DNA of 59,829 bases. Source: Patescibacteria group bacterium. GTDB lineage: Bacteria; Patescibacteriota; Minisyncoccia; Phycocordibacterales; UBA918. Shown here in pieces: positions 20,007 to 58,704 of this stretch. The notes under the pieces are model-generated. The model was not told the origin of the DNA. It did not search any database and saw nothing but the letters and a program-made list of their open reading frames with translations. Each line of letters begins with the position of its first letter. Position 1 is the first letter of the stretch. Made by a program: the position numbers and the translations under genes. Location: positions 112,554-172,382 of the forward strand of contig JAZKFU010000003.1 in the NCBI GenBank assembly GCA_040386275.1. Direction: 5' to 3'.

Positions 20007-20046
20007 ATATAAAAACCTTTCAGTTAACTGAAAGGTTTTTATATTT
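20005..20046. terminator. perfect 42-bp palindrome, bidirectional terminator
   Basis: AAATATAAAAACCTTTCAGTT|AACTGAAAGGTTTTTATATTT. Confidence 0.8.
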
Positions 20047-20172
20047 GAGACCGAGGCGGGATTCGAAACTTACAGTTTCAGTACAGGTTGTCGCTACTTT
20101 TGAAAAGTAGCTGGCAACCTTTTCGAATCCCGCCACCAAAATAAAAACACCCGAGACGGGTGTTTTTATTTT
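20044..20172 (-). repeat. tRNA-Cys trailer element (terminator, inverted T-arm copy, module B, 24-bp direct repeat of tRNA 3' end)
   Basis: TTTGAGACCGAGGCGGGATTCGAA at 20044-20067 and 20170-20193; TTCGAATCCCGCC inverted copy at 20122-20134. Confidence 0.85.
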
Positions 20173-20173
20173 G

Positions 20174-20246
20174 AGACCGAGGCGGGATTCGAACCCGCGA
20201 ATGGCGGTTTTGCAAACCGCAGCGTTAGCCCCTTCGCCACCCGGTC
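20174..20246 (-). tRNA. tRNA-Cys(GCA)
   Basis: Reverse complement GACCGGGTGGCGAAGGGGCTAACGCTGCGGTTTGCAAAACCGCCATTCGCGGGTTCGAATCCCGCCTCGGTCT folds into a cloverleaf. Confidence 0.95.
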
Positions 20247-34820: not shown

Positions 34821-35060
34821 AAATGAGTACAGTTCTAGTCGCACAAATAAAATAAGATGAGCCGTACTTTTTGTACGGTGAATTTTATTTTATGCAGGGC
34901 ACCAACGAAATGTGCCATCTTTGGAAGTCCGACTAATTTTTAAAACGCTCAGAATCGAGTGCAGTGCTAGGAGCGCAAGGACATTTTCTGTAGACGTACG
35001 GCTGTACGGCGGAAGAAAATGTACCGCAGTAGCGACAACGCAATGTGCCGATTGTGTGCG
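34821..35060 (+). repeat. family-C palindromic repeats, copies 2 and 3 (tandem)
   Basis: GAGCCGTACTTTTTGTACGGTGA at 34859-34881; degenerate AGACGTACGGCTGTACGGCGG at 34992-35012 flanked by GCGCAAGGACATTTT/AAAATGTACCGCAG. Confidence 0.75.
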
Positions 35061-40750: not shown

Positions 40751-42001
40751 ATGGAACAAATTAAATCAGACGTAGAATCTTTTGCGCGCATCCGCGTTGT
40801 CGGTGCCGGAGGTTCTGGAAACAATGCCGTCAACTACATGGTTGGCGCCAAAGTGAAGGGTGTCGAGTTCATCGCCATCAACAGTGATGCGCAAGATTTG
40901 CATCACTCACTCGCTAAGAAGAAAATTCACATCGGGAAAAACTTAACCCGCGGTCTTGGTGCTGGGGGAAACCCCGACATGGGACGACGAGCTGCTGAAG
41001 AAACTCGTGAAGAAATTAATAACGCAATCAAAGGATCAGACATGATCTTTATTACCTGTGGTATGGGTGGCGGTACCGGAACTGGTGCTGCTCCCGTGAT
41101 TGCAAAAATTGCTCGCGATAGTGGAGCATTAACTGTTGGCGTCGTCACCAAGCCATTTCTGTTTGAAGGTCAAGAACGAATGCGTTTAGCATTACAAGGT
41201 ATTGAAGAACTCAAGAAAGAAGTTGATGCCTTGATCATCATTCCTAACGATCGCTTACTTGCTATCGTTGATAAAGAAACTACTGTTCAAAATGCGTTCC
41301 AACAATGTGACAATGTTTTGAAACAAGCGGTTGAAGGTATCTCTGACTTAATCACCATGCCCGGTATCATCAACGTCGACTTCGCCGACATCCGTTCCGT
41401 CATGGAAAATGCCGGATCAGCGTTAATGGGTGTAGGAGTATCAACTGGTGAAAAGCGGGCGGAAGAAGCAGCACAAGCCGCCATCAATTCCCCACTTCTA
41501 GAAGTATCAATCACCGGAGCAAAAGGTGTACTGTTTGCAATCGCTGGTGGTGATGATCTAGGAATGCTCGAGATTCAAGATGCCGCTCGAGTAATCACCG
41601 AATCAATTGACCCTCAAGCCCGCGTAATATTCGGAGCTATCAAAGATGAGAAGCTCAAGAAAAATGAAATCAAGGTAACAGTGATTGCCACTGGCTTCCC
41701 GGAAGAAATGGGATCACACAACGCCACCATTTCTCGTCGTGCTCCCGTAGCCCAACCTGAACCAATGGTGATGGAAGAAGAACGAGTACCAGAATCACGT
41801 GGACGCATCTTCAATTCTCTCGGCGGACCACGTCGCGCTGAAGTAGAAGAGGTAGCCGTAAGTGCCCCTCCCCGAGTAGAAACCATGGAACCAAAACCCG
41901 AACTCCCAAGACGCGACCCTAAACCAGTAGATGTGATTGATGAAGAAGAGGACGACTGGGGTGCCGTACCAGCTTTTTTGCGACGATCAAAATTGAAATA
42001 A
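40751..42001 (+). CDS. ftsZ: cell division protein FtsZ
   Basis: GGGTGTG tubulin motif, INVDFAD, C-terminal VPAFLRR. Confidence 0.98.
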
Positions 42002-42020
42002 TTTTGTTCGTACAAAATAA

Positions 42021-42155
42021 GCTGGTACGGCAAGACGGATCGATGTGAGTCGCCCCTTTCCTAGGGCGACGAAGCAGACCGTCGGGGTCGCGAACACTTA
42101 GTAGATTATGAGTATAACGAAATAATATACTTAGTGATTCGTGACCAGTGCCAGC
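42021..42155 (+). repeat. module-A structured element downstream of ftsZ
   Basis: AGACGGA..ATGT...GTCGGGGTCG..AACACTTAGTA...ATACTTAGTGATTCGTGACC, flanked by GCTGGTAC/GTGCCAGC. Confidence 0.8.
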
Positions 42156-42282
42156 ATTCTCTAAAACTAACTAACATTTCCACCTTTAAAACCCCGGCTT
42201 CGGCCGGGTTTTTTGTTGGGTATAACCCCCCTATTCAAAACATGGTAAACTACTCATCACTTAGCAATTTTCAGTTTTTGAT

Positions 42283-43206
42283 ATGTACGATTTGATTATT
42301 ATCGGAGGAGGACCAGCCGGAGTATCCGCTGGTGTATACGCTGCTCGCAAACGCCTCAAGACATTATTTATAACAGCCGACTGGGGCGGACAAAGTATCG
42401 TCTCAACTGATATTCAAAACTGGATTGGTACTCCCTCTATTGCCGGCAATAAGTTGGCTGAAGACCTACGTACTCACCTCGAATCATACGCTTCCGACAC
42501 ACTGACTGTTCTCTCAGGTAAAACTGCGACCGGGTTAACAAAACTTCCTGATGGAACATTTGAAGCAACAGTAAGTGACGACTCAAAGCACAACGCACGC
42601 GCTATTTTAATTGCCAGCGGTTCAGGTCGTCGCCAGCTCGATGTACCAGGAGCCGCCGAATTTGAACACAAAGGAGTGACCTACTGTGCCAGTTGTGACG
42701 GACCGATGTTTTCTGGTACTGACGTTGTAGTGATTGGTGGCGGTAACGCTGGCTTTGAAAGCGCCGCGCAACTTTTAGCGTACTGTAAGTCAGTGACACT
42801 GATTCACCGACACGATACGTTTAAAGCTGACGCCATCACCGTTGAAAAAGTACTCGCCCACCCAAACATGCGCGTGATAACAAACTCCTCCCCTACAAAA
42901 ATTGAAGGAGAAAAATTTGTTAAAAGTATTACCTATAAAAACGCTCAAGGTGAAGAAACCACATTACCCGTATCAGGTATCTTTGTAGAAATCGGAATGA
43001 TACCAAATACTTCATACGCTAAAGACGCTGTGTCCCTCGATGACTATGGGCGCGTTACCATTGACCCCTGGACCCAAGCCACTACAACTTCAGGTATTTG
43101 GGCTGCTGGAGATTGTACCAACGTAAAATACCATCAAAACAATATAGCAGCCGGAGATGCAGTTCGCGCTTTAGAAGATATATACGTTCATCTGAAGACA
43201 CGTTAG
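42283..43206 (+). CDS. trxB: thioredoxin reductase-like FAD-dependent disulfide oxidoreductase
   Basis: GGGPAG, YCASCDG, VIGGGNAG, WAAGD. Confidence 0.88.
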   Translation: MYDLIIIGGGPAGVSAGVYAARKRLKTLFITADWGGQSIVSTDIQNWIGTPSIAGNKLAEDLRTHLESYASDTLTVLSGKTATGLTKLPDGTFEATVSDDSKHNARAILIASGSGRRQLDVPGAAEFEHKGVTYCASCDGPMFSGTDVVVIGGGNAGFESAAQLLAYCKSVTLIHRHDTFKADAITVEKVLAHPNMRVITNSSPTKIEGEKFVKSITYKNAQGEETTLPVSGIFVEIGMIPNTSYAKDAVSLDDYGRVTIDPWTQATTTSGIWAAGDCTNVKYHQNNIAAGDAVRALEDIYVHLKTR

Positions 43207-43222
43207 ACCTTATTCTAATGAT

Positions 43223-43834
43223 ATGAAAGAAATAGAAACAACTCGAAAGTACTATGACAAGTATGGTGACCTATGGATAAATACCAAAACTAATTCCTTT
43301 GCCCACGAAAAACCATTTCATAAGCTAGTATCTCTGTGGCCTCAAAAAGCTCGTATTATTGATATTGGATGTGCGGGTGGGATTCATGTACCACTCTTTT
43401 TAGGTATTGGCCGGAAGTTAAAATACCAAGGGATTGATATTAGTAAATTATTTATTAAGACAGCAACTCGTCGCTACCCACAACTTAATTTTTTACTTGG
43501 CAACGTGGCTGATAGTACTACTTTACCAAAAACAAAATTTGATGGCTTTTACGCCTCAGCAATTTTAATGCATATTCCATTCGAGCGTTGGGATACAATG
43601 TTTAGCAATATTGAAAACATTAACAAGCCTGGTAGTTTTGGATACATCACACTTCCCATTACTCATCCGAGCGCTGTTAAAAATGAAAATGATGTTCGCC
43701 ACTTCACGATACTCACAGAAGCAGAACAGGTTGCATATCTTAAAAAAAGAAACTGGAAGATTAAAAGCAAGGGTACACTCGACGGTACCAGCACCGCCAA
43801 TGTTTGGAAATACTACATAGTTCAACTGCCGTAA
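43223..43834 (+). CDS. class I SAM-dependent methyltransferase
   Basis: IIDIGCAGG, YQGIDIS, FDGFYASAILMH. Confidence 0.85.
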   Translation: MKEIETTRKYYDKYGDLWINTKTNSFAHEKPFHKLVSLWPQKARIIDIGCAGGIHVPLFLGIGRKLKYQGIDISKLFIKTATRRYPQLNFLLGNVADSTTLPKTKFDGFYASAILMHIPFERWDTMFSNIENINKPGSFGYITLPITHPSAVKNENDVRHFTILTEAEQVAYLKKRNWKIKSKGTLDGTSTANVWKYYIVQLP

Positions 43835-44027
43835 TATCATAAAAGCAAAAGGCATCCTTGCGGATGCCTTTTGCTTTTGTACAACGTAGAGAATTAGATT
43901 TGCGTGCCCCAAAACCTTGAAAGGTTTTTAATATGGAGAAAATCACCACCACGCAAACCTAATACAAGCTTCTCATATATGAGTACGCAATAAAAGAAAA
44001 TTAAATACCCTTATTTTTCAATCACGC

Positions 44028-44059
44028 TGTGCATAACCCGTGGATAAGCCGGTGGGTAA
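44028..44059. promoter_or_regulatory. three phased DnaA-box-like 9-mers
   Basis: TGTGCATAA (44028), CGTGGATAA (44039), GGTGGGTAA (44051) versus consensus TGTGNATAA. Confidence 0.45.
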
Positions 44060-44185
44060 ACCAGGGCAAAACTAAGTACATAAATGGGTGCGTAAGTGCC
44101 AAAGATAAGTTAGTGAACTTTTGATTGATTCTACCCTTTCTGAATCTCAATTTAAGGAATGGTATACTCAAGCTCTCGAACTTTC

Positions 44186-44272
44186 GGAAACGTGTCTGAG
44201 TGGTTGAAGGTACCGGTTTCGAAAACCGGCAGGGGCGAAAGCTCCTCGGGAGTTCGAATCTCCCCGTTTCCG
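44186..44272 (+). tRNA. tRNA-Ser(CGA)
   Basis: GGAAACG...CCGGT TTCGAAA ACCGG long variable arm GGGAG TTCGAAT CTCCC CGTTTCC G. Confidence 0.95.
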
Positions 44273-44278
44273 CTTTTT

Positions 44279-44442
44279 AAAATACCATCCAAGATGGTTA
44301 TTTTATTATGCGGAACGGGAGTCAGTGATTCAGTATCACTGACGTGAGATTCGAAGCTGTTGCCAGCTCTATTGGGAGTTAACGAATCAATAGAGCGACA
44401 ACGGGTACTGAAGCTGTAGGCTTCGAATCTCACCGTTTCCGC
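44279..44442 (+). repeat. tRNA-Ser trailer element (terminator, inverted 3'-strand copy split by 26-nt hairpin, module B, direct copy)
   Basis: GCGGAACGGG[44320-44345]GAGATTCGAAG ... CTTCGAATCTCACCGTTTCCGC (44421-44442). Confidence 0.88.
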
Positions 44443-44570
44443 AGTAAATAGCCCAACCCTTTACCCACTAGCTATTTTTAGCTTTTTTGGTATGATGGGG
44501 CGCACCAACAGTTCAGGAGTGACCCCTATGAAATAGGCTCTGAACCAAGGAACAAACAGACCATAAAATT

Positions 44571-44642
44571 GGTCCCATCGTCTAACGGTTAGGACATCAG
44601 GTTTTCATCCTGAAAATCGGAGTTCGATTCTCCGTGGGATCA
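44571..44642 (+). tRNA. tRNA-Glu(TTC)
   Basis: GGTCCCA TC GTC TAACGGTTAG GAC A TCAGG TTTTCAT CCTGA AAAT CGGAG TTCGATT CTCCG TGGGATC A. Confidence 0.95.
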
Positions 44643-44845
44643 CAGAGGCAAAACAAAAATACACCCCTTAGTTAAGGGGTGTATTTTTGTTTTAGAAAGC
44701 AAAGAGTTTTGCTTTCGGCCTCTGTGATAGACGGAGTCATGTTTTTCCTCTCCCTGGAGAAAAAACAGACGAGTCGGGGTCGAGAACACTTAGTATAATT
44801 TGTACGAAGTGCAATATTATACTTAGTGATTCGTGACCACACAGA
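44643..44845 (+). repeat. tRNA-Glu trailer element (long palindrome, 24-nt bulged hairpin, module A)
   Basis: Hairpin 44694-44717; module A 44729-44838. Confidence 0.85.
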
Positions 44846-45000
44846 CACATATGCAAAGTTCGTTTAGAACTTTTCAATTTGATCCCACAAGCAACAGTAT
44901 TACTACACCGTTACGTAAAAATCAACACCTAATTAGGACCACGGCATTATACTTTGATACTCCGCCAACTACCCTTAGCAGACTTTGATATACTGGTACC

Positions 45001-45543
45001 ATGCAAGAAAAATACGGAAAAATAATTTTCCTCAATGGCGCAAGTAGTTCAGGTAAAACCTCAATTGCCACCTTACTCCAACAGAAAATTGAACTACCCT
45101 TTTGGCATATTTCAATTGATCATTTAAGAGATGCCGGGGTACTACCATTAGAACGCATCAGAAGTGGAGAGTTTAATTGGCAAGAATTACGAGAATCATT
45201 TTTCTCTGGTTTTCATCACTCACTTCCCCAATATGCTAAAGCGGGAAATAATTTAATTATTGAACATATTATTGAAACCCAAGAATGGAAGCAGTTACTG
45301 ACCGAATTACTAAAACCGTTTGATGTGTTTTATGTCTGTCTACACTGCGAACTAGGAGAATTGGAACGTCGTGAAAACCATAGATCTGACAGACCTATCG
45401 GTGATGCACGAAAGGATTTTGAAGTTCTTCAAACTCTACCTATGCATTACGATTTAGAAGTTAACGCCGAATTGCCGGTGGAAGAAAATGTTGATGTGAT
45501 ACTTTCTCAGTGGCGACTACGAAGTAAACCTGAACTTTTATAG
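45001..45543 (+). CDS. chloramphenicol phosphotransferase (CPT)-like P-loop kinase
   Basis: IIFLNGASSSGKTS, FWHISID, GNNLIIEH, ERRENHRSDR, YDLEV. Confidence 0.85.
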   Translation: MQEKYGKIIFLNGASSSGKTSIATLLQQKIELPFWHISIDHLRDAGVLPLERIRSGEFNWQELRESFFSGFHHSLPQYAKAGNNLIIEHIIETQEWKQLLTELLKPFDVFYVCLHCELGELERRENHRSDRPIGDARKDFEVLQTLPMHYDLEVNAELPVEENVDVILSQWRLRSKPELL

Positions 45544-45671
45544 GGCCTGACTAACGTGATTTCATTGTAATAAATTTTTTGACTCACCGCAAAATTTATG
45601 GTTAAATAAATTTAGAACTACAAATACCAAACCCCGGGCAATGTGCCCTAGATCATTGAAATGAGGACAAG

Positions 45672-46568
45672 ATGAAAATCAACACCGCAAAAGCAGAAAT
45701 CGGAACCACCCTGAAAACTGAAATTTTGGTTTTGGAAAGTCAAAAAAAGAAACTGAAAAAAGAACTCGCTAAACTGACAAAGGAATTTGAAAAAATCCGT
45801 ACTAAGTTGGGAGTTGAATACAAGAAAGTTCCTGCTTTAGCCAAGGAACTTAGAGCCATTAAAGTTCATGGTACAAAGAAAGAGTTGGCTCTTCATAAGA
45901 AATTAGATGACTGCGTGGAAAGTAATGAAAAACTTCAAGTTGTCCGTGAAGAGTATACGACCAAGATTGAGAAGTTGAAGGAAGAACTTACCAATCTTGA
46001 GTTGAAATTGATGGTGCTTAAAGAAAGAGAGCTCAGTAAGATTGATGCTAACGATGAAATGATTACCCAGGTTTTTGCACTCAACGATGCAATGGTGCAG
46101 GCCTCTACAGCACGTGAACAGTTTCTCAAACGACATGTGTTTCCTTTCTTGATTGATGAGAATGGAAACATGCGGAGCCAGATAACACACACAACCTCAG
46201 ACGAACTAAGGAAAATGGTAGTGATGGTTAACACCTTAACTATCATGAAACCGGATTTGGCTGCTGAAGCCCAACGTGAAGTCCAAAGTTTCTTTGATCG
46301 TTTTGAGAAGCCCTCCCTGGCAGACCCGTATGTCGAAGCAATGTTCACCATAACACGTCAGCTCCTCGTAGAGAAAACCACAGTTAAAGTTGGGCCAAAT
46401 CTTTCACGGTTTATCTCGATGGAACTTGATGGTGAAATATTTCCTGAATTGGCTCGAGCACAGCTTCTCTACAAACAAAGCATCTGGTCGAAGAAAACTA
46501 ACTCGTACATCCGACTTTATGCACGTCAAAGTAAGCATGACAAATTTGAAGTCGTCCCGCAATCCTAG
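45672..46568 (+). CDS. coiled-coil hypothetical protein
   Basis: Heptad-rich N-terminal half, SD GAGG, downstream hairpin 46585-46620. Confidence 0.7.
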   Translation: MKINTAKAEIGTTLKTEILVLESQKKKLKKELAKLTKEFEKIRTKLGVEYKKVPALAKELRAIKVHGTKKELALHKKLDDCVESNEKLQVVREEYTTKIEKLKEELTNLELKLMVLKERELSKIDANDEMITQVFALNDAMVQASTAREQFLKRHVFPFLIDENGNMRSQITHTTSDELRKMVVMVNTLTIMKPDLAAEAQREVQSFFDRFEKPSLADPYVEAMFTITRQLLVEKTTVKVGPNLSRFISMELDGEIFPELARAQLLYKQSIWSKKTNSYIRLYARQSKHDKFEVVPQS

Positions 46569-49979: not shown

Positions 49980-50052
49980 GCGAGATTAGCTCAGCTGGTA
50001 GAGCGCCCGCATGACATGCGGTAGGTCACAGGTTCGAGCCCTGTATTTCGCA
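49980..50052 (+). tRNA. tRNA-Val(GAC)
   Basis: GCGAGAT TA GCTC AGCTGGTA GAGC G CCCGC ATGACAT GCGGT AGGTC ACAGG TTCGAGC CCTGT ATTTCGC A. Confidence 0.93.
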
Positions 50053-50244
50053 CAAAATTAAAACGCCCCTAAAGGGCGTTTTAATTTTGTGCGAAATAAG
50101 TATTGTGCCTGCGCACAATACGTCGGGGCTCGAAAAGCGGAGCGATGTTTTGGCTATTCCTAATGCCAAAACCGCGAGCTGTGTCCCGCGGCACTTATGA
50201 GCGTCAGCGAATTTGTGACCGTCAGGACAAGTCCTGTACTCTAC
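50053..50244 (+). repeat. tRNA-Val trailer element (25-bp-arm palindrome, 25-nt hairpin, inverted T-arm copy, variant module A)
   Basis: Arms 50044-50068/50074-50098; hairpin 50099-50123; CGGGGCTCGAA 50124-50134. Confidence 0.85.
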
Positions 50245-54857: not shown

Positions 54858-54962
54858 CAGAAATGAGTGAAGTTCGCGGCGGACGAGTAATGTAGTCCGA
54901 GCCGTACTTTTTGTACGGTGAGGAATACATTGCGAAGGACAACAAAGAAATTCGCCATTTGT
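54858..54962 (+). repeat. family-C palindromic repeat, copy 5
   Basis: CAGAAATGAGTGAAGTTC...GAGCCGTACTTTTTGTACGGTGAG...AGAAATTCGCCATTT. Confidence 0.8.
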
Positions 54963-57551: not shown

Positions 57552-57603
57552 ATATTTAATATGATAGCAGTGGATGGAGATGATCTGGTGTATTTGTGTA
57601 CAC

Positions 57604-57937
57604 GGTCGGGTGCTTGAGGGCAGGCTCGGTCACGAGTTACTAAGTATATTTGTGCATTGCGTGCAAATTCTACTAGGTGTTCTCGACCCGAGAAACAGTG
57701 CCTAAACACTGTTTCTCCCGCTGTTTCGGCTCTAGGAAGAGCCAAAACATGCCTGTGCCTTTCGTTTCTTACAGAAACTGTATACCTTGTCGCTACTTTT
57801 ACATTTCATTCCAAAGTAGCTGGCAAGGTCTTGCAGAGTGACATTGGGTCACTCTTCACCCGCACGTAACTGACATTGGTCAGTTGCTCCCCAAGCACCG
57901 GGTACAGAAATAGCCCCTTGCGGGGCTTTCTGTACGC
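57604..57937 (-). repeat. tRNA-Phe trailer element containing the 25-nt hairpin, module B and module A plus a distal direct copy of the tRNA 3' end
   Basis: Hairpin 57864-57888; module B 57761-57830; module A 57628-57760; GGTGCTTGAGGGCAGGCTC (57609-57627) versus tRNA GGTGCTTGGGGGCGGGCTC (17/19). Confidence 0.88.
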
Positions 57938-58012
57938 GGTGCTTGGGGGCGGGCTCGAACCGCCGACCCCTTCCTCTTCAGGGAAATGCTCTACCAACTG
58001 AGCTACCCAAGC
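57938..58012 (-). tRNA. tRNA-Phe(GAA)
   Basis: Reverse complement GCTTGGGTAGCTCAGTTGGTAGAGCATTTCCCTGAAGAGGAAGGGGTCGGCGGTTCGAGCCCGCCCCCAAGCACC. Confidence 0.95.
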
Positions 58013-58521: not shown

Positions 58522-58704
58522 CATTGATGCAAACTAATAAACACTCTTCAAAAAGAAGAGTGTTTATTAGTTTAGCAAGCAACCTGCGTTGCTTGCGGGC
58601 ATCAATGTGAGACGGAGTCATGTTTTCTCCTCCTTCCTAGAGGAGGAAACAGACGAGTCCGGTGAGGAAGTTCTTATGAGTGTCAGCGAATTAGAAACTT
58701 GACC
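58522..58704 (+). repeat. tRNA-Arg trailer element (long palindrome, 25-nt hairpin, module A variant)
   Basis: Hairpin 58574-58598; AGACGGAGTCATGT at 58610; TTATGAGTGTCAGCGAATT shared with the Val element. Confidence 0.85.

Follow-up and report, generated by a model that had tools for sequence, protein, structure and literature searches.

A tRNA-shaped trailer behind a tRNA-Ser gene of a Patescibacteria genome as a probable copy of a miniature structured insertion element

The 59,829-nt stretch analysed here in full (the window; positions 112,554 to 172,382 of the forward strand of contig JAZKFU010000003.1, assembly GCA_040386275.1 of a Patescibacteria group bacterium) carries ftsA, ftsZ, a thioredoxin-reductase-like gene, tsaD and nine tRNA genes. 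One of the latter, tRNA-Ser(CGA), is followed by a trailer in which the tRNA 3' part recurs in inverted and in direct orientation around a conserved structured unit, hereafter module B. The initial annotation had described this layout as an inverted tRNA end interrupted by a 26-nt hairpin, then module B and a distal direct copy; all pieces were found where it had placed them, and only the hairpin, although present, proved to be 25 nt long (44320-44344). The parts of the locus are listed below.

44186-44273 (+), functional tRNA-Ser(CGA) gene, called by ARAGORN; Rfam tRNA match at 44186-44272 with 48.8 bits
44253-44273 (+), X_E, the proximal copy, i.e. the last 21 nt of tRNA-Ser from T54 to the 3' end (direct repeat)
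44284-44298 (+), A/T-rich terminator-like hairpin ACCATC-CAA-GATGGT with a T-rich tail to 44308 (terminator scan and sequence)
44310-44319 (+), a' = GCGGAACGGG, inverted acceptor 3' strand with the discriminator and one more base (sequence and fold)
44320-44344 (+), hp2, consisting of A, a 9-bp stem GTCAGTGAT/ATCACTGAC with the loop TCAGT, and G (fold)
44344-44357 (+), t' = GTGAGATTCGAAGC, inverted T-loop and T-stem 3' strand
44356-44424 (+), module B, conserved three-helix unit of ~60 nt (covariance model R1, 75.4 bits, E = 6e-17)
44357-44362 with 44399-44404, helix P1 of module B, with the CCA/GA internal loop
44366-44373 with 44389-44396, helix P2 of module B
44410-44415 with 44419-44424, helix P3 of module B with GTA loop; linker GTACT
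44422-44442 (+), X_H = TTCGAATCTCACCGTTTCCGC, distal, displaced direct copy of the tRNA 3' end from T54

The distal 21 nt match the tRNA-Ser 3' end at 20 of 21 positions, confirming the single mismatch reported initially, and the pattern occurs twice in the window as compared to 0.01 occurrences expected by chance. X_E and X_H (44253-44273 and 44422-44442) form a direct repeat of the tRNA 3' part with a spacing of 169 nt and a non-coding interior, and the terminator-like hairpin at 44284-44308 is placed between tRNA-Ser and the element body. The inverted acceptor strand a' is one base short, which results in a bulge in the acceptor-like stem, hp2 is located at the acceptor/T-stem boundary of the inverted tRNA copy, and t' forms with 44420-44433 a 14-nt inverted repeat of 100% complementarity. 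The proximal copy retains CTCCC, matching GGGAG of the tRNA, whereas the distal copy reads CTCAC, matching GTGAG of t'; the only mismatch of X_H therefore restores its pairing with t'. Such a split would be expected from recombination inside the repeated segment or from selection on the stem itself.

Folded as RNA, positions 44311-44442 adopt a three-way junction of -58.4 kcal/mol (z = -6.38), and none of 200 shuffled sequences folded as well. The predicted structure is in concordance with the one proposed earlier: the distal copy pairs with the inverted one to give an acceptor-like stem, a side hairpin and an extended T-stem holding module B. The junction is tRNA-like because target-derived inverted (a' and t') and direct copies pair around module B, and the trailer may rightly be called a tRNA-derived scaffold, since its 3' strand repeats the cognate tRNA in direct orientation, T54 through the 3' end, and the inverted copy makes up its 5' strand. 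Given the repeat statistics, the complementarity of the arms (14/14) and the z-score of the fold, the arrangement is real and not due to chance. The single-stranded DNA (ssDNA) folds of the two strands were equally good (-38.3 and -38.1 kcal/mol, z = -8.5 and -9.7). Regarding the features of tRNA-like processing substrates, the acceptor-like and T-like helices are present; the acceptor-like stem carries a one-base bulge, the discriminator and the following base are paired with no free NCCA-type end, and the T-loop is closed, being replaced by a long helix. In the fold of a read-through transcript, a' was predicted to pair with the real tRNA-Ser 3' end.

Module B was defined by P1 (nnCTTG/CAAGnn), a CCA/GA internal loop, the P2 hairpin, a GTACWG linker and P3 closed by CU-GUA-AG, all of which are found at 44356-44424. 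A pattern scan of one genome per species yielded at least 121 copies in at least 111 loci (8 kb each, labelled with L numbers), and the hosts among the matches listed were all Patescibacteria-type metagenome-assembled genomes (MAGs), namely Paceibacteria, Kaiserbacteria, Nomurabacteria, Parcubacteria and MAGs labelled Saccharibacteria. None was found in 2.9 million viral contigs. Within the window, the core TGCCAGC...GCGACA occurs three times vs 0.02 expected, in the trailers of tRNA-Ser, tRNA-Cys and tRNA-Phe and each time on the tRNA strand, and the covariance model recovered exactly these three copies with 73-75 bits. Over 103 distinct copies, helix pairing was retained in 92.6% of cells vs 75.1% in shuffles, and 14 of 22 pairs showed changes on both sides. 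The covariation score was 0.417 vs 0.118 and was reached by none of 500 shuffles, slid controls remaining at ≤0.13. The unpaired nucleotides (CCA/GA internal loop, GUACWG linker and CU-GUA-AG tip) are strongly conserved, in part because the search pattern imposed it. Pairs of the G-U type outnumber A-C pairs by 65 to 34 on the tRNA strand, an excess that favours this strand but fits RNA and a folded DNA strand alike. Module B is a conserved three-helix unit with strong covariation.

Of the 121 listed copies, 45 have a tRNA gene on the same strand less than 400 nt upstream of them, with 26 anticodons represented, and other tRNA-adjacent arrangements account for only four copies. From 3 nt past a tRNA-linked module B onwards, the sequence repeats the cognate tRNA in direct orientation. 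On the left, this copy nearly always starts at T54, where the T-loop begins; on the right, it ends anywhere between the tRNA 3' end and more than 20 nt beyond. An echo of the last 21 nt was detected downstream of 48 of the 95 tRNA genes of the loci and the window, and upstream of none. Seventeen of these 48 genes lack a strict module B; sister modules occupy that T-loop position instead, namely a B2 variant, C-D (AGACGGAG...GAGTCGGGGTCG.GAACACTT...GTGACC) and C-F. The arm t' stands upstream of module B in 34 of 37 close tRNA-linked copies. In approximately 14 of the 37, on at least seven tRNA species, a' is present besides t', with a hairpin of 9-11 bp between them, not more than 1 nt from the T-stem/acceptor boundary. 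Equivalents of hp2 occupy the same place in L008, L021, L056, L058, L063, L071, L079, L082, L092, L099 and L110. Since other tRNAs share the hairpin-bearing plan, the tRNA-shaped junction is a recurrent sub-architecture and not a peculiarity of the tRNA-Ser locus. About 60% of the listed copies have no tRNA-like flank, many of them being antisense to both neighbouring genes, and one (L090) lies in antisense inside the T-arm of tRNA-Glu.

Copies that lack tRNA-like flanks begin at their 5' end with ...GG, followed across a fixed boundary by TGAG-hairpin-GCAAG and module B. For 16 of 45 such copies, the stretch of 10-43 nt up to this boundary (GG/TGAG) is found again 22-150 nt downstream of module B, as the start of an intact gene. 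Pfam confirmed among the targets msrA, a GH1 glycosidase and a P-loop kinase, where the boundary follows the motifs GGCFWG, FxWG and GxGKG, respectively; the 5' strand of the initiator tRNA (tRNA-fMet) is a further target with a duplicated 5' end. The mirror image, a duplicated 3' end, is found in ftsZ of the window:

41962-42175, C-D element at the ftsZ 3' end: the gene's final 40 nt, an inverted copy of 33 nt with 85% complementarity, the module at 42033-42146 and a second gene end

The second ftsZ end of the window is decayed (GTGCCAGCATTC..., reading VPAF...). A matching C-D arrangement at ftsZ in locus L010 has a displaced copy that is intact to the stop codon and differs by 10 synonymous codon changes. 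Altogether, eight pairs of duplicated gene ends showed 29 synonymous vs 6 nonsynonymous codon differences, with ~21% synonymous expected under random change (p = 6e-15), and therefore both copies of the gene ends evolved as parts of working genes. By analogy, coding-selected pairs of this kind are what is seen when integrating elements bring along a substitute end for the gene. Across the element itself the frame is not conserved, hence the element is non-coding; at the tRNA-Ser locus, a coding reading was rejected, as the ORFs at 44152-44433 (minus) and 44159-44347 (plus) are not conserved and the frame differs between copies.

Several observations concern gain, loss and rearrangement. Module B is nested in a C-D module between GGGG and TCGAG, and tandem units occur in L057, L065 and L080. 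The B variants behind identical tRNA-Cys genes and terminators are not the same and show three compensatory changes in P1. Within the syntenic Cys-Leu-Lys-Leu cluster, module B stands after Cys in the window, after Leu(tag) in L027 and after Leu(taa) in L079. Finally, in the related species of locus L113, where the neighbouring methyltransferase is 75% identical, both flanks of tRNA-Ser are kept and the element is absent.

We consider it probable that 44274-44442 is a copy of a Patescibacteria-wide family of miniature (~60-170 nt), non-coding, structured insertion or integrative elements. The element would be lodged in the 3' part of the tRNA-Ser(CGA) gene with its junction at the first T-loop base, between G53 and T54. 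The proximal copy (44253-44273) would complete the working tRNA and be followed by the small terminator, and the distal copy (44422-44442) would be the displaced fragment, abutting the conserved 3' end of the element body. An intact tRNA-Ser gene would persist because the tRNA 3' part is present twice. Integration into tRNA genes is characteristically marked, according to PMC9897764 citing Williams 2002, by a direct repeat that covers the tRNA 3' part and starts in the T-loop. We infer that the elements are or were mobile. The replacement gene end would be their cargo, comparable to the restoration of tRNA, icd or dusA genes by integrating islands, and spread may have occurred via Campbell-type recombination within the carried homologous gene end, possibly aided by natural transformation. 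Alternatively, homing-type repair after cleavage of the conserved motifs might be responsible, an HNH_3 gene being present beside tRNA-Leu/tRNA-Cys in the window and beside tRNA-Cys in L002, or else a single-strand intermediate whose fold mimics the target. The conserved fold would serve as a handle for a trans-acting enzyme or be needed as RNA. Of the two functions suggested in the initial annotation, a folded ssDNA recombination substrate is closer to the evidence for an insertion element than an RNA released by tRNA-processing enzymes.

More tentatively, the modules B, C-D and C-F may together represent a new class of protein-less, RNA-like structured mobile elements in Patescibacteria. These would invade the best-conserved motifs close to the ends of essential genes (among them the T-loop of tRNAs, the C-terminal peptide of FtsZ, the active site of msrA and P-loops), would be rendered harmless by a replacement end with its own terminator or ribosome-binding site, and would spread in homing- or Campbell-like fashion, perhaps by natural transformation or through a tRNA-mimicking RNA or ssDNA intermediate.

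A number of points weigh against the interpretation as an insertion element. The loci were gathered through the module B search, and the frequencies given above are thus biased upward. The tRNA-specific inverted copy may simply be the 3' arm of a type of terminator that overlaps gene ends in these genomes, and the conserved loop nucleotides together with the G-U excess are as compatible with a functional RNA as with a folded DNA strand. The tRNA-Ser(CGA) of L113 (2085-2172) lies on the opposite strand and is only ~65% identical to 44186-44273; being inverted and divergent, it does not offer a clean empty site, and the comparison suggests that tRNA-Ser was replaced or inverted and the locus remodelled rather than simply filled. 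Neither a strain-level empty site nor an excised form was found, the sole close contig from the methyltransferase search, which derives from SRR26324626, being identical to the window. There was no transposase, integrase or reverse transcriptase in or adjoining any copy, and neither a recombinase nor an endonuclease could be linked to the copies. Moreover, tRNA-end repeats more than 450 nt apart were absent from the 8-kb loci, with the exception of one inverted case, and no autonomous version was found.

Searches against known families were as follows. Rfam 15 (4227 models) applied to the whole window at gathering score returned tRNAs only and no match to the element. A cmscan run on 44100-45000 (E <= 10) gave the two true tRNAs as its sole meaningful matches, and 44310-44442 was without any match. 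Seven element-bearing loci searched against Rfam at E <= 1 gave only tRNAs and chance matches. Megablast of 43000-46000 against the phage collection gave no match, and the exact tRNA-Ser pattern retrieved nothing from metagenome contigs. It should be added that a true group I intron (RF00028, 56.9 bits; L099, 4658-4883, minus) sits in the anticodon loop of a tRNA-Met(CAU) not called by ARAGORN. The trailer of this tRNA-Met has C, B and D modules, and the intron is separate from them.

Candidate assignments were rejected on individual grounds. The covariance model of tRNA and tRNA-like RNA (RF00005, clan CL00001) has no match over 44310-44442, and that of mascRNA (RF01684) matches only the true tRNA-Glu. 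A tRNA-integrated island would contain an integrase or cargo between the repeats, where neither was found and the interior is non-coding. As regards MITEs (miniature inverted-repeat transposable elements), the inverted arms correspond to the local tRNA end and differ at every site, and no parent insertion sequence was found. The core ATTCGAA...TTCGAAT departs from the consensus RYYYAAC...GTTRRRY of integron attC sites, and no cassette array or integrase ORF is nearby. Inverted ends as in the msr-msd RNA of retrons are present, but a reverse transcriptase is missing among the neighbours (a methyltransferase, tRNA-Glu and a CPT-like kinase). Hammerhead, twister, hatchet, pistol and HDV-like ribozymes, T-box, tmRNA, retron RNA and group II intron domain V were weighed as possible resemblances; their conserved nucleotides do not fit, and no model supported them.

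The element shares features with several known systems and differs from each of them. As in the islands, prophages and integrative and conjugative elements that integrate into tRNA genes, icd or dusA (PMC9897764, PMC4482086), the repeat extends from the T-loop to or past the 3' end, and in protein targets the replacement end keeps the frame and differs from the displaced copy mainly synonymously. In contrast to them, the insert is only ~100-200 nt, protein-less and built around a conserved, covarying, hairpin-rich module, and it follows roughly half of the tRNAs of the loci sampled and uses many different targets. Homing elements (group I introns, inteins and free-standing homing endonucleases) likewise target the most conserved motifs of conserved genes, to which the tRNA T-loop, msrA GCFWG, the P-loop, GH1 FxWG and the FtsZ C-terminal peptide would correspond. 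The flanks look co-converted or recoded, an HNH_3 gene adjoins trailer-bearing tRNAs, and a group I intron is present in tRNA-Met of a related genome. However, the element is not spliced out, gene function being kept via the duplicated end, and it is far too small for group I or II introns, with no match to them.

Rickettsia palindromic elements are also found inside genes, RNA genes included. Together with MITE, REP/BIME, pneumococcal BOX, RUP and SPRITE, and Correia repeats (PMC10969869, PMC2229807, PMC3049150), they resemble the present family in being short, non-coding, folding, modular and multi-copy, in having nested and tandem copies, and in their intergenic or genic location with co-transcription with neighbours. 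Unlike these repeats, the element has no terminal inverted repeats of its own, since its flanking stem is target sequence; the duplication ranges in length from 10 nt to over 40 nt, one of its boundaries being fixed and the other variable; and the sites are conserved motifs near gene termini. Furthermore, the module is conserved across whole classes of the phylum with compensatory changes, and does not consist of near-identical recent copies.

Folded single-strand recombination sites include integron attC and the attP(+) hairpin of CTX phage that is used by XerCD. The trailer has in common with them an imperfect palindrome with a bulged base, a structure kept more than the sequence, a crossover-like junction after G and before TT, and a folded stem that reproduces the target duplex. 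It differs in the absence of an attC core consensus, integron integrase or attI context, in a stem that varies by target gene, and in the copies at 5' ends of protein genes, which have no inverted arm. With mascRNA/MALAT1, viral tRNA-like structures and the tRNA-like domain of bacterial Y RNA it shares an acceptor-like helix stacked on a T-like helix and a third hairpin at the junction, but in the element the T-loop is a long helix, the discriminator is paired and no family matched.

Other explanations have to be considered against this background. The trailer might be a gene for a tRNA-like non-coding RNA, transcribed and recognised by RNase P, RNase Z or the CCA-adding enzyme, from which a module B RNA of ~133 nt would be released for a task in the cell. 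The thermodynamically favoured junction, its recurrence on several tRNAs with the hairpin at the acceptor/T boundary, the RNA-like covariation with more G-U than A-C pairs on the tRNA strand, and the position of 45 of ~49 listed tRNA-adjacent copies downstream on the tRNA strand all agree with such a gene. We nevertheless regard it as unlikely: between the tRNA and the element stands a terminator-like hairpin, the promoter scan was negative, no tRNA or tRNA-like Rfam model matched at E <= 10, and both the T-loop and the discriminator are fully paired. Furthermore, in the predicted fold of a read-through transcript the real tRNA 3' end is taken up by a', and the tRNA scaffold fails to account for the ~60% of copies without tRNA-like flanks, many of which are antisense or in protein-gene 5' ends. 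These latter copies are also difficult for the view that the trailers arose by local duplication with no mobility and act in cis on tRNA expression, whether they extend the terminator, provide a platform for RNase III-type processing or protect the 3' end, since modules in protein-gene 5' ends, nested or tandem, and antisense to neighbours remain unexplained by it. Window tRNAs ending in palindromes of 22-28 bp that include the tRNA 3' end (20885-20944, 50044-50098 and 57889-57948), an ftsZ end overlapped by its own inverted repeat, and the orientation, consistently that of the tRNA, would nonetheless be natural for a cis-acting device. As it does not explain the differences in occupancy between related genomes, the B variants swapped behind identical tRNAs or the retained coding capacity of displaced gene ends, we think it improbable as well.

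It is also conceivable that a large prophage or island once integrated at the T-loop of tRNA-Ser and was deleted, leaving attL and attR 169 nt apart. The direct repeat of the tRNA 3' part from the T-loop classically signals integration at tRNA genes (Williams 2002, via PMC9897764), but the ordered plan of terminator, a', hairpin, t', module and displaced copy recurs behind dozens of tRNAs in many genomes, and random deletion scars are therefore unfit to explain it. The interior is a conserved covarying module and not decayed phage DNA, and neither the viral contigs, which lacked module B, nor the loci, which lacked long-range repeats, point to such an origin. This explanation is largely refuted and very improbable.

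If the elements are what we propose, the smallest known bacterial genomes would be pervaded by a parasitic or symbiotic sequence that follows roughly half of the sampled tRNA genes, and the same class of sequence would lie inside the ends of genes such as ftsZ and msrA, having been missed by gene callers and RNA databases. Bringing along a spare gene end appears to be a third way of occupying a conserved site, as compared to the self-splicing of introns and inteins. The conserved fold would imply a protein or ribozyme activity and could be a lead to new recombination or RNA-processing chemistry. The annotation of MAGs would be affected by false partial tRNAs, upstream mini-ORFs and apparent duplications of gene ends, and the elements might serve as markers of gene flow among uncultured Patescibacteria. 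A literature search for such elements in Patescibacteria found no description, and the family is apparently undescribed so far.

The common plan noticed initially for the tRNA trailers of this window extends to the following further features:

20037-20246 (minus), tRNA-Cys trailer: tRNA, terminator, inverted T-arm copy and module B at 20065-20121
20894-21090, tRNA-Leu(taa) trailer with sister modules
44644-44890, tRNA-Glu trailer with sister modules
49980-50240, tRNA-Val trailer with sister modules
57600-57937 (minus), tRNA-Phe trailer with sister modules
58523-58700, tRNA-Arg trailer with sister modules

The tRNA-Cys trailer follows the plan of tRNA-Ser without the acceptor arm and hp2, and repeats in direct orientation 31 nt comprising the tRNA 3' end and its flank (20037-20067 vs 20163-20193), this copy being followed by the original bidirectional terminator. 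In the sister-module trailers, the modules are preceded by a terminator and by the tRNA end, or the trailer, in inverted copy. The latter read AGACGGAGTCATG-hairpin-CAGACGAG (C), GGGGTCGAGAACACTTAGTA...GTGACC (D) and ...GAAGTTCTTATGAG.GTCAGCGAATTAGAAACTTGACC (F). Past the C-D module behind tRNA-Glu, ~240 nt downstream of the gene, TGATCCCACA at 44880-44889 is the reverse complement of its last 10 nt. The palindromes at 20885-20944, 50044-50098 and 57889-57948 are perfect or near-perfect over 22-28 bp, and their 5' arms are the acceptor 3' strands of tRNA-Leu, tRNA-Val and tRNA-Phe, respectively. Upon read-through transcription, formation of these hairpins would be in competition with that of the acceptor stem; the one at tRNA-Leu, when read directly, has no T-run after it.

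An HNH_3 homing-endonuclease ORF of 160 aa (20339-20821) lies between tRNA-Cys and tRNA-Leu(taa) and overlaps the start of the latter. It is absent from the syntenic clusters of L027 and L079, and a homolog stands beside tRNA-Cys in L002 (59% identity over the 39 aa present in the locus). With regard to transcription, extended -10-like motifs were seen 18 nt 5' of tRNA-Ser (TGGTATACT, 44160-44168) and 66 nt 5' of tRNA-Glu (TGGTATGAT, 44497-44505). The consensus promoter scan called neither of them and found no promoter for the element; because these motifs are present but were missed by the consensus scan, promoters without a -35 box are probably used by these organisms. The terminator arm AAAATACCATC of the window resembles the sequence that flanks the tRNA on its 5' side in L113. 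Lastly, a 98-nt repeat with 71% identity is found at 34821-34918 and 54861-54958. Its centre, GAGCCGTAC-TTTTT-GTACGGTGA, forms a hairpin that resembles the base of group II intron domain V and is also present after module B in L042, L043, L104 and L108.

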